The position numbers were made by a program, and so were the translations under genes. From positions 1 to 43,253 of the IMG/VR virus record IMGVR_UViG_2778261009_000005: a stretch of DNA of 43,253 nucleotides; one strand, given 5' to 3'. The stretch is from a virus (taxonomy: Duplodnaviria > Heunggongvirae > Uroviricota > Caudoviricetes). Below are positions 65-19,585 of the stretch, one piece after another. Under the pieces are notes generated by a model. That model made no database searches and had not been told where the DNA came from. It saw only the letters and a list, made by a program, of their open reading frames with translations. The stretch's first letter is position 1. Each line of letters begins with the position of its first letter.

Positions 65-127
65 GTGCAGCTCCATCAGCAAAAGGGGATGATAAGTTTA
101 TCACCACCGACTATTTGCAACAGTGCC
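1..127 (-). mobile_element. IS26 left end (partial, continues beyond window start)
   Basis: Reverse complement of 1-127 reads as the IS26 end: 14-bp terminal IR GGCACTGTTGCAAA at 114-127 and the start of the transposase ORF. Confidence 0.85.
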
Positions 128-349
128 GGAAGGAATATGATTCATATCGGTGAGGAAGGTGCCCAGAAAACGGACACATCCAATTTGCAGGGCAATGCCC
201 AGACGGTTGTGATCACCTCTGCTTTTTCCGATAAATTCCTTGTCTGCTTCATCAAGGTGAAAATATCGTGCCAGCTGAAGCTCATCCGGTTCACCGGTGA
301 ATCTGCCATAGCTTTCAGTCTGCTCAGTGGTCAGAAAGTCAACGGGCAT
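128..349 (-). pseudogene. tnpA: tnpA 5' remnant (Tn3-family transposase, first ~74 codons) interrupted by IS26
   Basis: Minus-strand ORF starting at 347-349 encodes [32 protein letters not shown]...; homology stops at the IS26 IR (127/128). Confidence 0.8.
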
Positions 350-1070
<721 letters not shown>

Positions 1071-2260: not shown

Positions 2261-2467
2261 TTTTACCGCGCTTTTCCGCGTTTTGCTGGCTGGTGGGCGC
2301 TCTTTCTGTTTAGCGATACGGCGGTCGATAGAATCCCGCATTTTCTGATATTGCGATTCTCGCCAAGCGGGGTCAGCCAACTTTTCCCGTTGCCGAGCGA
2401 TCGCTCGTTCTCTGGCTGCCTTCTGCCACTCGCGGCGCTGTTCAAGTTTTTGTTCGATTGTTTTCAT
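2252..2467 (-). pseudogene. ref: ref-like gene (P1 Ref, RecA-dependent nuclease), N-terminal ~69 codons; 3' part displaced by the transposon
   Basis: Highly basic N-terminus MKTIEQKLEQRREWQKAARERAIARQREK... (about 21 K/R in 70 aa); the reading frame runs into the Tn IR at 2260 and the last codons are transposon-derived; lies downstream of cre. Confidence 0.45.
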
Positions 2468-2472
2468 ATGGC

Positions 2473-2499
2473 AAAAAAAAAGGCGGCCTAATGGCCGCC
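2473..2499 (-). terminator. Intrinsic terminator (minus strand) immediately upstream of the ref-like start codon
   Basis: Minus strand reads GGCGGCC-ATTA-GGCCGCC followed by T9. Confidence 0.6.
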
Positions 2500-2566
2500 A
2501 ATGATGTCAAGGAGTTAAGTAATGGCAACGTCTTCGTAGTTGACAAAAACTGCGGCTTAATTATAG

Positions 2567-2583
2567 CAATCAATTAGAGCAAT
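2567..2583 (-). promoter_or_regulatory. C1 operator-like site with adjacent extended -10 (TGcTATAAT, minus strand at 2560-2568)
   Basis: Minus strand ATTGCTCTAATTGATTG, 14/17 match to the P1 operator consensus ATTGCTCTAATAAATTT. Confidence 0.55.
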
Positions 2584-2690
2584 GGTAGATATTTTGTTAA
2601 TCGCGAATCACATTTTTTCACTTCAGTACCTGTGTGCTATACTCCTTCTTGATTGATTGGATGCGGAATACAAACCCGCTCTTTTGTGCA

Positions 2691-2717
2691 GCCTGGCTCC
2701 TTGCCAGGCTTTTTTTA
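2691..2717 (+). terminator. Intrinsic terminator (plus strand)
   Basis: GCCTGG-ctccttg-CCAGGC followed by T7 (tttttttattt). Confidence 0.6.
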
Positions 2718-3026
2718 TTTCATCATGGAAGCTGTTAACGCTTTGGATCTTGCTGAACTGATTGAAAGGGCATTGTTTACCTTACCCAGGAGTTCGCCAA
2801 ATTCCACCATCACTCTAGTAAGCCCGCGCCGCGCTTCCTCCTCCGTTGCATTCATCACAAAATGTTCAGCACTCCGCATGCTTTTAACGGGGAACGCAAC
2901 AGATATCGAGTCGATATCAGGCATCCTATCGCTCAACTTTACGGTGACAATGACAGATGGTGACTGAATTTGAGAGCTTACAGACAGCACCACATATTTT
3001 CCGTCTATTTTGAAATCCTTCCGCAT
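2715..3026 (-). CDS. Hypothetical protein between cre and ref (cra position)
   Basis: 103-aa ORF preceded by a C1-operator-like site; no recognisable motif. Confidence 0.3.
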   Translation of the reverse strand: MRKDFKIDGKYVVLSVSSQIQSPSVIVTVKLSDRMPDIDSISVAFPVKSMRSAEHFVMNATEEEARRGLTRVMVEFGELLGKVNNALSISSARSKALTASMMK

Positions 3027-3042
3027 GTGTCACCATAAATAT

Positions 3043-3059
3043 CAAATAATTAGAGCAAT
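3043..3059 (-). promoter_or_regulatory. C1 operator-like site
   Basis: Minus strand ATTGCTCTAATTATTTG, 14/17 match to consensus. Confidence 0.5.
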
Positions 3060-3076: not shown

Positions 3077-4108
3077 CTAATCGCCATCTTCCAGCAGGCG
3101 CACCATTGCCCCCGTTTCACTATCCAGGTTACGAATGTAGTTCATGACAATATTTACGTTGGTCCAGCCACCAGCTTGCATGATCTCCGGTATTGAAACT
3201 CCGGCGCGGGCCATATCTCGCGCGGCTCCGACACGGGCACTGTGTCCAGACCAGGCCAGGTATCTCTGACCAGAGTCATCCTTAGCGCCGTAAATCAATC
3301 GATGAGTTGCTTCAAAAATCCCTTCCAGGGCGCGAGTTGATAGCTGGCTGGTAGCAGATGGCGCGGCAACACCATTTTTTCTGACACGGCAAAACAAGTA
3401 GTTATTCGGATCATCAGCCACACCAGAGACAGAAATCCATCGCTCGACCAGTTTAGTTACCCCCAGGCTAAGTGCCTTCTCTACACCTGCGGTGCTAACC
3501 AGCGTTTTCGTTCTGCCAATATGGATTAACATTCTCCCACCGTCAGTACGTGAGATATCTTTAACCCTGATCCTGGCAATTTCGGCTATACGTAACAGGG
3601 TGTTATAAGCAATCCCCAGAAATGCCAGATTACGTATATCCTGGCAGCGATCGCTATTTTCCATGAGTGAACGAACCTGGTCGAAATCAGTGCGTTCGAA
3701 CGCCAGTGCCTGTTTTGCACGTTCACCGGCATCAACGTTTTCTTTTCGGATCCGTCGCATGACCAGTGAAACAGCATTACTGTCACTTGGTCGTGGCAGC
3801 CCGGACCGACGATGAAGCATGTTTAGCTGGCCCAAATGTTGCTGGATAGTTTTTACTGCCAGACCGCGCGCCTGAAGATATAGAAGATAATCGCGAACAT
3901 CTTCAGGTTCTGCGGGAAACCATTTCCGGTTATTCAACTTGCACCATGCCGCCCACGACCGGCAAACGGACAGAAGCATTTTCCAGGTATGCTCAGAAAA
4001 CGCCTGGCGATCCCTGAACATGTCCATCAGATTCTTGCGAACCTCATCACTCGTTGCATCGACCGGTAATGCAGGCAAATTTTGGTGTACGGTCAGTAAA
4101 TTGGACAT
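3077..4108 (-). CDS. cre: Cre site-specific recombinase (tyrosine recombinase)
   Basis: 343-aa ORF MSNLLTVHQNLPALPVDATSDEVRKNLMDMFRDRQAFSEHTWKMLLSVCRSWAAWCKLNNRKWFPAEPEDVRDYLLYLQARGLAVKTIQQHLGQLNMLHRRSGLPRPSDSNAVSLVMRRIRKENVDAGERAKQALAFERTDFDQVRSLMENSDRCQDIRNLAFLGIAYNTLLRIAEIARIRVKDISRTDGGRMLIHIGRTKTLVSTAGVEKALSLGVTKLVERWISVSGVADDPNNYLFCRVRKNGVAAPSATSQLSTRALEGIFEATHRLIYGAKDDSGQRYLAWSGHSARVGAARDMARAGVSIPEIMQAGGWTNVNIVMNYIRNLDSETGAMVRLLEDGD matches P1 Cre as remembered. Confidence 0.97.
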   Translation of the reverse strand: MSNLLTVHQNLPALPVDATSDEVRKNLMDMFRDRQAFSEHTWKMLLSVCRSWAAWCKLNNRKWFPAEPEDVRDYLLYLQARGLAVKTIQQHLGQLNMLHRRSGLPRPSDSNAVSLVMRRIRKENVDAGERAKQALAFERTDFDQVRSLMENSDRCQDIRNLAFLGIAYNTLLRIAEIARIRVKDISRTDGGRMLIHIGRTKTLVSTAGVEKALSLGVTKLVERWISVSGVADDPNNYLFCRVRKNGVAAPSATSQLSTRALEGIFEATHRLIYGAKDDSGQRYLAWSGHSARVGAARDMARAGVSIPEIMQAGGWTNVNIVMNYIRNLDSETGAMVRLLEDGD

Positions 4109-4430
4109 TTAACACTCAGATAATGGTTTTAAGTAAAGTGTACAGGATCGGCTCTGCCTTTACCTGTTTATGGTTCTCGTCATAGAAACGCCAGCGACCG
4201 CGCGTGCGTTCTATTTTTTCTTCACCGCGCGATAATGACAGTTGGCAACTATCACGATCAAACCCTTTTGCCCGCCAGTAACCACGGTTTTTCTCAAGCT
4301 CAAGATGAGTGGACACTTTAGCAGTTGAATATCCCATTTTTCACCTCTGATTGATTGGTGGTGCTAAGTGCGCTACGCGAAATCTGTAGGACTAACACCG
4401 CCAATTTTTCACAGATTTTACGTAGCGCAA

Positions 4431-17558: not shown

Positions 17559-17645
17559 TTATCCATGAGCGACGATGCCGCCAAAAGTGATAGAGAACAA
17601 CCAGAAATAGATCGCGGCCATAATGATTTTGAATGCCGTGTTCAT
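17559..17645 (-). CDS. Candidate 28-aa hydrophobic peptide
   Basis: MNTAFKIIMAAIYFWLFSITFGGIVAHG with AGGAG 9 nt upstream of the ATG; below the ORF-track size cutoff; unverified. Confidence 0.3.
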   Translation of the reverse strand: MNTAFKIIMAAIYFWLFSITFGGIVAHG

Positions 17646-17673
17646 ATTTTCAGCTCCTGTGATTGATTGGATA

Positions 17674-17727: not shown

Positions 17728-17744
17728 AGATTTATTAGAGCAAT
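17728..17744 (-). promoter_or_regulatory. C1 operator-like site
   Basis: Minus strand ATTGCTCTAATAAATCT, 16/17 match. Confidence 0.6.
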
Positions 17745-18322: not shown

Positions 18323-19585
18323 TCAGCGAACGTAAATAGTGCCGCCGTTCTCTTTTTCCCATGCATTGCTACGTGCATAGCAAACATCGAGAAGTCTTCT
18401 TGCCGCTGTTTCCTCTAAACCCAATTCGACAACCAACTGCTCATGACGGCGGGTAACCACATCAAACAGGGTATGCAGCCCTTTAGCTGCCAGATCATCA
18501 ATAAATTCCGGTTCGAACGGCAGCTCTGCATCTGCCAACATAACCTCTTGCGCCCACTCGACACGGCGGACCAGTTCCGGGCGGCGGCTTTCCATCTCTT
18601 TACAGATCAATTCATGGAAGAACTCTACCCAACCTTCCGGCTGGAACTCGCGGAAAATGGCCAGCGGCTGGAAGTTTGGCATCAACCATTCGTTGATTCG
18701 GATATCAATGGCATAGCCCATGTCGCAGCAGAACTGATAAGCAAAGTCCAGCTTAGAAACGATATAAGGACGCTCGTTATTGAACTCTTTAGGCGATGAG
18801 ATCCCATAAGCCAGGAGGCGCGGGAAGAAGGAGATTTGCCCTAACGTCGGATGAAGTTTGCTTGCAGGGAAACGGCGCTCAGTAATGCCATACATTTCCT
18901 TCTTGAGCGTCGCAAATTTGGCATTCTCATTAACCAGCGCGGTAACCTCTGCTTTTTTATTAGCAAATGCCACGCGCGCTTCGCTTGCATCTTTAATAGT
19001 TTTTTTGAGCTGTTGGTTAAGGTCGGCGACCTGCTTACGCAGTTCCTGTCGCTCGCTTTTAGCTTTGTTATAGCGTTTCTCAAGGTTAAAAGGATCAAGT
19101 TTCATGATCTCTTTATATTGAGATTTTAGCGTTGAAATCTGTGAGTTCCGCAGTTCAACCATCGCGGTCATTTCATTGAGTTTTGTTTCCAGCTCAATGC
19201 TTATACGTTCGGCATTATCAGCACGCTGGTTGGCGTCATGCGTCGCATCGTCGATCGCGTCCTGTTGCTGGCGTTTCAAATGTTCAATTTGCAGCTGAAG
19301 CTCTTCAATTTCTTTACCCTTCAGACCGAGATCCAACTGCATATTTTCAGCTGCATCTACCAGGGAGTTATGGCTATCAGCTTCTGCGTTATAAACATCA
19401 ATAAGCTGTGCGTGAAGCATCTCCGCTGACTGAACCGCATTATCAAAAAAACGTGCTGTGAGGTCATCACAACTAACGCGGCGTTGCGCGGCCCGGATGT
19501 TCTGGATAATGGCCGGGATACCGGCATTCAGGACATCAGGGATAGATACATTTTCGATTGATTGGTTTTGTGCTGAAGTGCTCAT
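18323..19585 (-). CDS. Hypothetical protein, coiled-coil N-terminal half plus C-terminal globular domain
   Basis: 420-aa ORF; heptad-rich region about residues 80-230; no nucleotide-binding motif recognised; start 1 nt after the stop of the upstream 72-aa ORF. Confidence 0.55.
   Translation of the reverse strand: MSTSAQNQSIENVSIPDVLNAGIPAIIQNIRAAQRRVSCDDLTARFFDNAVQSAEMLHAQLIDVYNAEADSHNSLVDAAENMQLDLGLKGKEIEELQLQIEHLKRQQQDAIDDATHDANQRADNAERISIELETKLNEMTAMVELRNSQISTLKSQYKEIMKLDPFNLEKRYNKAKSERQELRKQVADLNQQLKKTIKDASEARVAFANKKAEVTALVNENAKFATLKKEMYGITERRFPASKLHPTLGQISFFPRLLAYGISSPKEFNNERPYIVSKLDFAYQFCCDMGYAIDIRINEWLMPNFQPLAIFREFQPEGWVEFFHELICKEMESRRPELVRRVEWAQEVMLADAELPFEPEFIDDLAAKGLHTLFDVVTRRHEQLVVELGLEETAARRLLDVCYARSNAWEKENGGTIYVR

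Follow-up and report, generated by a model that had tools for sequence, protein, structure and literature searches.

The IMG/VR virus record IMGVR_UViG_2778261009_000005 is a stretch of 43,253 nucleotides (nt), referred to here at its full length as the window, that belongs to a P1-type phage-plasmid and is oriented in reverse relative to the P1 map. The segment at positions 2465-2717 is the c8-ref intergenic control region of this element and holds two predicted transcription units that lie back to back, one running leftward into ref and the other running rightward toward c8. A preliminary description of this segment had pointed out a C1 operator, two divergent extended -10 promoters and two intrinsic terminators, and had proposed that these elements either make short regulatory RNAs or leave ref dependent on terminator read-through. 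Over positions 2440-2740, alignment of the window to P1 (AF234172) gave 99% identity, with five substitutions and two 1-base differences in homopolymer length.

The genes around the segment all lie on the minus strand. According to the list of open reading frames (ORFs), cre occupies 3077-4108 and c8, annotated in P1 as "establishment of lysogeny, putative," occupies 2715-3026; diversity at third codon positions well above that at positions 1 and 2 confirmed the c8 reading frame. The 5' part of ref (2252-2467, with its ATG at 2465-2467) matches the annotated ref or Ref family protein of P1-like phages and plasmids. Only the first 71 codons are present, as the gene is cut there by the end of a Tn3-family transposon, and a Tn3-type end sequence follows blaTEM. 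The transposon fills positions 1-2251 and includes the N terminus of tnpA (101-508, minus strand), tnpR (477-1070), blaTEM (1253-2113), and a terminal repeat ending at about 2251. In P7, too, the record describes a Tn3 insertion in ref, at the 3' end, indicating that the gene was hit independently by Tn3-type elements.

Sequences related to the segment turned up in 20 records of phages and 700 of plasmids, nearly all of Escherichia or Salmonella origin. The main comparison set comprised 174 loci, representing 78 distinct sequences. Diversity was calculated from 60 distinct sequences that were collected via the Ref protein and were hence unselected with respect to the rightward segment, and pairing in the ref leader was analyzed in 27 distinct leader sequences. 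A search of viral contigs for a 17-mer pattern gave about 15% chance matches, which were removed by BLAST filtering. No diverged intergenic region was reached through the C8 protein in species-representative genomes, which yielded three relatives (two 99-100% identical and the third, on a 411-bp contig, 84% identical), and the viral loci collected through Ref were all P1-like, with no distant relative among them. Because only close relatives were found, covariation analysis was without power. The 84% c8 homologue (L012) is on a contig labelled Acinetobacter idrijaensis and may reflect contamination or a very short assembly fragment.

A candidate small RNA in the rightward unit

The rightward unit begins with a predicted sigma-70-type promoter on the plus strand (2615-2643), recognized by our pattern scanner, in which TTTTCA (2615-2620) is followed after a 17-bp spacer by the extended -10 sequence TGTGcTATACT ending at 2643. 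The element TGCTATACT lies at 2635-2643, in agreement with the preliminary description, which had a plus-strand TGcTATACT there pointing to a downstream terminator; we place that terminator at 2690-2716. The predicted transcript is a candidate small RNA (sRNA) of about 66 nt (2651-2716, corresponding to minus strand 1894-1828 in P1) consisting of a single-stranded 5' end, GAUUGAUUGGAU (2651-2662), a stem-loop (2663-2679), a U-rich linker (2680-2689), and a terminator hairpin (2690-2710) with a U-tract that extends to 2716 and overlaps the c8 stop codon (2715-2717). The terminator has 8 pairs, 6 of them G-C, and a 5-nt loop, followed by T6-A-T3 (U6-7); its folding energy was -16.2 kcal/mol (z = -4.04 versus dinucleotide shuffles), and no U-tract accompanies the hairpin on the opposite strand. 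The whole candidate RNA folded at -23.2 kcal/mol (z = -3.47) with its first 9 nt unpaired. The scanner found this promoter and both of the terminators claimed for the segment, which were the strongest of four terminator-like sites in 2.5 kb (2.0 +/- 1.4 in shuffled sequence). Placing the starts about 7 nt past each -10 element predicts a leftward transcript of about 75-80 nt and a rightward one of about 66 nt.

The rightward promoter does not appear to share the control of its neighbor. The two promoters do flank the C1 operator (Oref) as had been described. The operator overlaps only the leftward promoter, however, and the flanking arrangement is not to be taken as control of both promoters by C1: Oref ends 32 bp upstream of the rightward -35 element, which makes direct control by C1 unlikely, and nothing suggests that the rightward unit is under C1 control. 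The -22 box of P1 late promoters, AAGTGACTT, was absent from the rightward promoter, and we therefore rejected its identity as a late promoter.

Sequence diversity across relatives singles out this unit. Positions 2635-2734, with values of 0.003-0.011, are the least variable 100 nt of the 1.4-kb locus, compared with 0.11 in the adjacent spacer, 0.07-0.16 in c8, 0.04-0.11 in cre, and 0.04-0.16 in the surroundings overall. Diversity in the sRNA segment is also below that at codon positions 1 and 2 of c8. The -10 element is intact at 171 of the 174 loci, the 5' seed is the same in all 78 distinct sequences, and both stems are invariant; variation is seen in the terminator loop and in the length of the U-tract, which ranges from 5 to 9. 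In an Escherichia albertii plasmid in which an IS200 element replaces c8, homology begins exactly at the T-tract of the rightward terminator.

We found no existing annotation for this unit. The P1 record contains none, although it annotates the C4 RNA, a kilA antisense RNA, and a dicF-like region; it annotates no terminators at all, and the absence of a hairpin feature there says little. The segment occurs in 615 of 5,426 complete E. coli genomes, with 613 copies on plasmids, for which RefSeq shows the c8 coding sequence and no noncoding RNA. Our own searches of the literature yielded no published P1 RNA at this position. A permissive Rfam search gave, for the rightward and leftward units alike, sRNA-like hits below threshold only, the best being rseX at 23.7 bits (gathering threshold, 50), mmgR at 23.6 (41), and SorX (RF02784) at 22.6 (46.6). 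SorX, an alphaproteobacterial RNA and the highest-scoring weak hit to the plus-strand unit, resembles that unit in size and in its two-hairpin layout; with an E value of 0.008 and a score far below the gathering threshold, we treated the similarity as a chance structural resemblance.

Small proteins encoded on the plus strand (2634-2738, 2653-2967, and 2657-2761) were considered and rejected. They would begin at or before the predicted 5' end of the RNA and have no Shine-Dalgarno sequence, their frames are broken by the U-tract polymorphism, and the pattern of substitutions fits c8 and not an antisense ORF. A promoter and a terminator with no frame-stable ORF between them define, by sequence criteria, an independent noncoding unit. 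Conservation and anatomy make a short regulatory RNA, one of the two options originally raised, the best-supported reading of the rightward unit. We give an even chance to the stronger statement that the unit is expressed as a functional RNA, which would apparently be undescribed.

Repeated boxes complementary to the candidate seed

The sequence CCAATCAATC, the complement of the first ten bases of the candidate RNA, occurs in five exact copies in the 43-kb window, compared with 0.23 expected, and none of 100 shuffled sequences reached five. Thirty 10-mers had at least five copies on the two strands of the window, and these fell into four motif families: three functional repeats that are already known (C1 operators, RepA iterons, and a word containing Chi, ATGCTGGTGG) and the CCAATCAATC box. 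The four copies outside the sRNA locus are also present in P1.

Three of these four boxes are sense oriented and within 30 nt of a start codon, which is unexpected, as we estimate from about 117 genes that only some 4% of strand-specific positions lie so near a start. The box at cra (4349-4358, minus strand) spans -21 to -12 relative to the ATG at 4335-4337, lies directly 5' of the Shine-Dalgarno sequence, and is intact in 77 of the 78 loci that hold the region. The second is extended to a 12-nt box, ATCCAATCAATC (17661-17672, minus strand; 11 nt in P1), which occupies -27 to -16 relative to the start of a 28-codon ORF that is not annotated and lies directly 5' of the AGGAG of that ORF; the box is intact in four of five diverged elements. 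In pmgS, an exact match lies at 19556-19565 (minus strand), +21 to +30 from the ATG at 19583-19585, covering codons 7-10. The fifth copy (28509-28518, plus strand) is antisense within dbn, downstream of gene 5 in the P1 annotation.

The 28-codon ORF (17559-17645, minus strand) encodes the hydrophobic peptide MNTAFKIIMAAIYFWLFSITFGGIVAHG, lies upstream of pmgT behind a strong AGGAG, and is downstream of a hairpin and a C1 operator at 17728-17744. Five diverged P1-like elements keep the ORF intact, and among them we counted about 5 synonymous to 3 amino-acid-changing differences. Family searches with the 28-residue peptide, Cra, and C8 gave nothing significant, and the peptide had no Pfam or NCBIfam match. 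On conjugative plasmids, the match to this region that we examined was a 3' fragment between IS1 and hsdR on an IncF plasmid and did not include the box.

These features suggest a model in which the extended -10 promoter, not overlapped by a C1 operator, would produce an RNA of about 66 nt ending at the terminator over the c8 stop codon. This RNA would be a trans-acting, base-pairing sRNA whose free 5' end, GAUUGAUUGG(AU), pairs with CCAAUCAAUC boxes near ribosome-binding sites. Its proposed targets are cra, which is upstream of cre, the C1-controlled 28-codon hydrophobic ORF upstream of pmgT, and the early part of pmgS, and pairing at the boxes would most likely lower translation. That the boxes are targets of the RNA is a tentative proposal, one that we hold with less confidence than the existence of the RNA itself.

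In its anatomy, the candidate resembles known regulators. Hfq-type sRNAs with 5'-end seeds, such as RybB and OmrA/B, and phage or prophage sRNAs, such as the P1 C4 RNA, DicF, and those of enterohemorrhagic E. coli (EHEC), combine their own promoter, a length of 60-80 nt, a free 5' seed, a stem-loop, and a U-rich stretch by the terminator. The EHEC prophage sRNAs are mentioned in bioRxiv 10.64898/2025.12.28.696737. As predicted from its sequence, the candidate would share with these RNAs both this anatomy and short exact complementarity near ribosome-binding sites, and it is unrelated, in sequence or through Rfam, to the Hfq-type and phage sRNAs named. The C4 RNA arises by mRNA processing and regulates neighboring sites, whereas the candidate sRNA would act at sites up to 26 kb away.

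The ref leader and its terminator

The leftward unit starts at P2ref (2560-2588, minus strand), which we located by aligning the window to the features of the P1 GenBank record and which combines an extended -10 TGcTATAAT (2560-2568) with a weak -35 element, CTACCA (2583-2588). The sequence TGCTATAAT was read at 2568-2560, where a minus-strand TGcTATAAT had been claimed. The operator was likewise where it had been placed, at 2567-2583, and reads ATTGCTCTAATTGATTG from 2583 to 2567 on the minus strand; it is Oref (formerly Op1/Op2a), a protein_bind feature in both the P1 and P7 records. This 17-bp site fits the C1-operator pattern (ATTGCTCTAATAAATTT-type sites) with 1 mismatch, and the window contains 11 matches to the pattern, compared with 0.23 expected. 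Oref fills the spacer between the -35 and -10 elements of P2ref and shares 2 nt with TGcTATAAT. The TATAAT is retained in all variants except one that carries a 13-bp deletion.

Another operator-like site lies in the gap that separates the stop codon of cre from the start of c8, where the minus strand of the window contains a perfect C1-operator-like 17-mer, ATTGCTCTAATTATTTG (3043-3059). In P1, P7, and the E. albertii plasmid, the same site is ATTGCTaTAATTATTTG, which reads as an extended -10 TGcTATAAT; a single base thus switches it between operator-like and promoter-like. Neither an operator nor a promoter is annotated at this site in P1.

Between the back-to-back promoters lies a spacer (2589-2614) with the highest diversity of the intergenic region, 0.11. 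An H-NS motif, CGATAAA, has been described upstream of P1 ref, and H-NS binds the ref 5' region (PMC4713147). In the window, the corresponding positions 2600-2606, within the most variable intergenic part, read CGATTAA, a single-base difference from P1. Transcription of ref is under C1 control (PMC4713147; PMC3973344) and is derepressed upon C1 inactivation (PMC4713147); its induction in the lytic cycle comes later and is weaker than that of ssb, dmt, and kilA (PMC4713147; PMC3973344). Both papers report binding and repression by C1 at P1 ref, citing work published by Windle and colleagues in 1988.

The terminator that precedes ref matched the preliminary description in every particular: it is strong, occupies 2473-2499 on the minus strand, and has a T-tract that ends 5 nt before a ref ATG lacking a Shine-Dalgarno sequence. 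In the ref-sense RNA, the order is GGCGGCC-AUUA-GGCCGCC (2499-2482, with the stem formed by 2493-2499 and 2482-2488 and the loop at 2489-2492), U9 (2481-2473), GCCAU, and then the start codon (2467-2465). The seven G-C pairs and 4-nt loop folded at -16.2 kcal/mol (z = -3.25 versus dinucleotide shuffles). Its helix is retained across the distinct leaders, where 99.5% of cells are paired; changes in the stem are limited to G-C to G-U and one C-G to U-G, all of which pair in the ref-sense RNA, and the loop varies freely (ATTA, ATCA, TAAA, GAAA, and GCAA). None of the variants seen has a Shine-Dalgarno sequence before the ref ATG.

The hairpin at 2482-2499 is also the sole minus-strand terminator-like site between positions 1500 and 4000, so that no terminator belonging to c8 itself is present in the direction in which c8 is transcribed. 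With no other such site downstream of c8, the ref terminator should also be what stops cre-c8 transcription before it reaches ref. In 16 of the 174 loci, a convergent gene for a KilAC-domain antirepressor replaces ref. These loci (L003, L004, and L005, corresponding to pB1W1-p1, pEND_Eco 19025-2, and pEA15_2, and 13 more) keep an orphan operator-promoter-leader-terminator cassette, and in pB1W1-p1 the 13-bp deletion removes the P2ref -10 element. Because the junction with the KilAC gene falls right after the U-tract of the ref terminator, the hairpin behaves as a module boundary and insulator.

The hairpin at 2473-2499 agrees with the attenuator mentioned in the title of the 1988 report by Windle, Laufer and Hays, which refers to attenuator-antiterminator control; the attribution is based on that title and on the GenBank features. 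As in attenuators built on intrinsic terminators, whether of the trp type or controlled by antiterminators, a strong promoter-proximal terminator precedes the gene and expression would need read-through. The ref leader differs from such attenuators in having no conserved leader peptide, as reading frames shift with the U-tract, and no alternative structure supported by covariation. Its terminator comes right up to the start codon, taking the place of the Shine-Dalgarno region, and a promoter that might bypass it is predicted. The same overall arrangement is found in the P1 ref region (AF234172 and M23246), which is 99% identical and like this element in its operator, promoters, hairpin with U-tract, and ATG without a Shine-Dalgarno sequence. 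The P1 region has U8 instead of U9 in addition to the difference in the H-NS motif, and it lacks the interruption of ref after codon 71. As annotated, the P1 ref region excludes the rightward unit.

Several leader structures were considered. The P2ref transcript leader (2500-2553) varies at roughly the level of neutral sequence (diversity, 0.07-0.10; 36 of 60 sites variable). A hairpin at 2531-2547 was rejected as it is disrupted in several variants, and it showed no covariation. When the 3' arm of the terminator was omitted from the fold, the 5' arm paired with the 5' end of the transcript together with GUCAA/UUGAC, or with GUUGCCA. Attenuation through a leader peptide was also rejected: the only ORF crossing the hairpin (2442-2573) would open before the transcript begins, and its frame is altered by differences in U-tract length. 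An antiterminator role for the candidate sRNA found no support either, with pairing to the ref leader no better than in shuffles, of which 199 of 300 were at least as good.

A second promoter, P1ref, is predicted within the leader by both the scanner and the P1 record ("predicted sigma 70 promoter P1ref"). It lies at 2501-2528 on the minus strand and has TTGCCA (2523-2528) as its -35 element, a 16-bp spacer, and TGaCATCAT (2501-2509). Its predicted start, at about 2492-2494, falls within the 5' arm of the terminator, and transcripts from P1ref thus could not form the hairpin. The preliminary description had missed this third route to ref. The known part of the leftward half can be summarized in a model in which P2ref is shut in lysogens by C1 bound at the overlapping Oref. 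Once active, its transcript would run about 55 nt into a strong terminator 5 nt before an AUG without a Shine-Dalgarno sequence, where most transcripts should stop, and cre-c8 transcription would be halted before ref by this same terminator and no other. Ref, a RecA-dependent nuclease harmful to the host, would consequently be made only in small amounts, by read-through or antitermination once C1 is lifted, from the predicted P1ref, or both. We consider it very probable that the left half of the segment is such an operator-controlled, attenuated ref leader. This half is already known; the refinement added here lies in weighing against read-through the predicted bypass promoter and a role of the hairpin as an insulator.

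Alternative explanations and implications

For the rightward unit, several points weigh against a base-pairing sRNA. Its promoter and terminator are matches to consensus. The relatives are all close, with identities of at least 87%, and among them the stems never covary and no compensatory change joins seed and box. A target scan based on duplex energy gave no better result for the real sequence than for shuffled versions. The box consists of short tandem repeats of CAAT, and slippage has removed one unit at the small-ORF site in a natural variant; the box in pmgS is positioned slightly beyond the stretch in which pairing usually blocks initiation. The cra-darB region has been used as a nonessential insertion site (PMC10695390), and any function there would therefore be accessory. 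The conserved block also continues for about 45 nt past the 3' end of the sRNA into roughly the final 16 codons of c8, synonymous sites included: third-position diversity at 2718-2765 is 0.046, compared with 0.17-0.25 elsewhere in c8, with sharp edges to the block near 2635 and 2760. The sRNA model leaves this conservation unexplained, and the block may serve a further overlapping element or a recombination joint. Alternatively, the unit might make no functional RNA, its hairpin and T-tract acting as a one-way barrier to antisense transcription, from res or from transposons like the one inserted in this window, into c8-cre. The promoter-like sequence would be incidental, the conservation would come from an element at the 3' end of c8, a DNA site bound by a protein, or a recombination joint, and the boxes would be either a protein site or an A/C-rich translational enhancer. 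In favor of this alternative, module junctions are located at both terminators, and the box at 28509 has no gene start nearby. The ref-sense strand at the sRNA locus itself reads CCAATCAATCAAGAAGGAG, so that there, too, a box precedes a Shine-Dalgarno-like sequence. Yet a barrier requires only the hairpin and T-tract, whereas the 40 nt upstream and the -10 element are equally invariant, and the IS200 variant has lost the c8 3' end but kept the RNA unit. The boxes, moreover, hold constant positions relative to ribosome-binding sites and not to promoters, and, read in the c8 sense, the hairpin lacks a U-tract and the Shine-Dalgarno-like sequence is not followed by an ORF. We consider the barrier alternative possible but somewhat doubtful.

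The leftward unit raises a corresponding question about the source of ref mRNA. If P1ref were the main source, the terminator would serve to cancel transcription from P2ref and cre-c8, and control by C1 would be indirect or exerted through P1ref. Its prediction both in the P1 record and by the scanner, the TG-extended CATCAT, and the 16-bp spacing from TTGCCA are consistent with this, and TTGACATCAT in P1ref is nearly invariant inside an otherwise variable leader. The P1ref transcript has a U-rich leader with no stable fold (-2.5 kcal/mol), that is, an unstructured 5' untranslated region, and the ref terminator seems too strong for much spontaneous read-through. P1ref is nevertheless a prediction, its CATCAT is weak as a -10 element, and the title of the 1988 report points to attenuator-antiterminator control. 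Also against it are the reported derepression of ref on C1 inactivation (PMC4713147) and the position of the sole operator, which overlaps P2ref, about 60 bp upstream of P1ref. We regard this route as an unlikely main source of ref. As for antitermination, a conserved antiterminator structure was not found: the two pairings, 89-91% paired across variants, show no compensatory change and were indistinguishable from shuffles, which speaks neither for nor against an RNA antiterminator. The leftward RNA of about 80 nt, from P2ref to the terminator, might instead be a C1-controlled regulatory RNA itself, in line with the retention of its promoter-leader-terminator cassette in the 16 loci where another gene replaces ref. 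The RNA body varies as neutral sequence does, however, its predicted hairpin is disrupted in several variants, the P2ref -10 element is deleted in one variant without ref, and recombination at the terminator would equally explain why the cassette is retained; we judge this very improbable. The choice originally posed between short regulatory RNAs and read-through into ref is thus divided between the two halves. Read-through or attenuation, the published reading, stands for the leftward unit, where a short regulatory RNA is not supported, and a short RNA is favored for the rightward one.

For the rightward unit, the preferred reading thus remains a short regulatory RNA. Taken as a whole, and advanced only tentatively, our proposal is that P1-type phage-plasmids, found in about 11% of completely sequenced E. 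coli, encode an unnoticed and probably constitutive sRNA of about 66 nt whose seed would act on CCAAUCAAUC boxes to tune cra (and possibly cre via the same transcript), the 28-residue peptide gene, and pmgS. P1 is among the best-studied phages, and its relatives are common antibiotic resistance phage-plasmids; the present element carries blaTEM inside ref. If the proposal is true, the rightward RNA would add a new regulator to the cre-c8-ref corner of the genome, marking a small, box-tagged set of targets that includes an overlooked gene for a small membrane-type peptide. Alongside C4, it would give P1 a second RNA regulator, and a repeated box would identify its small regulon.

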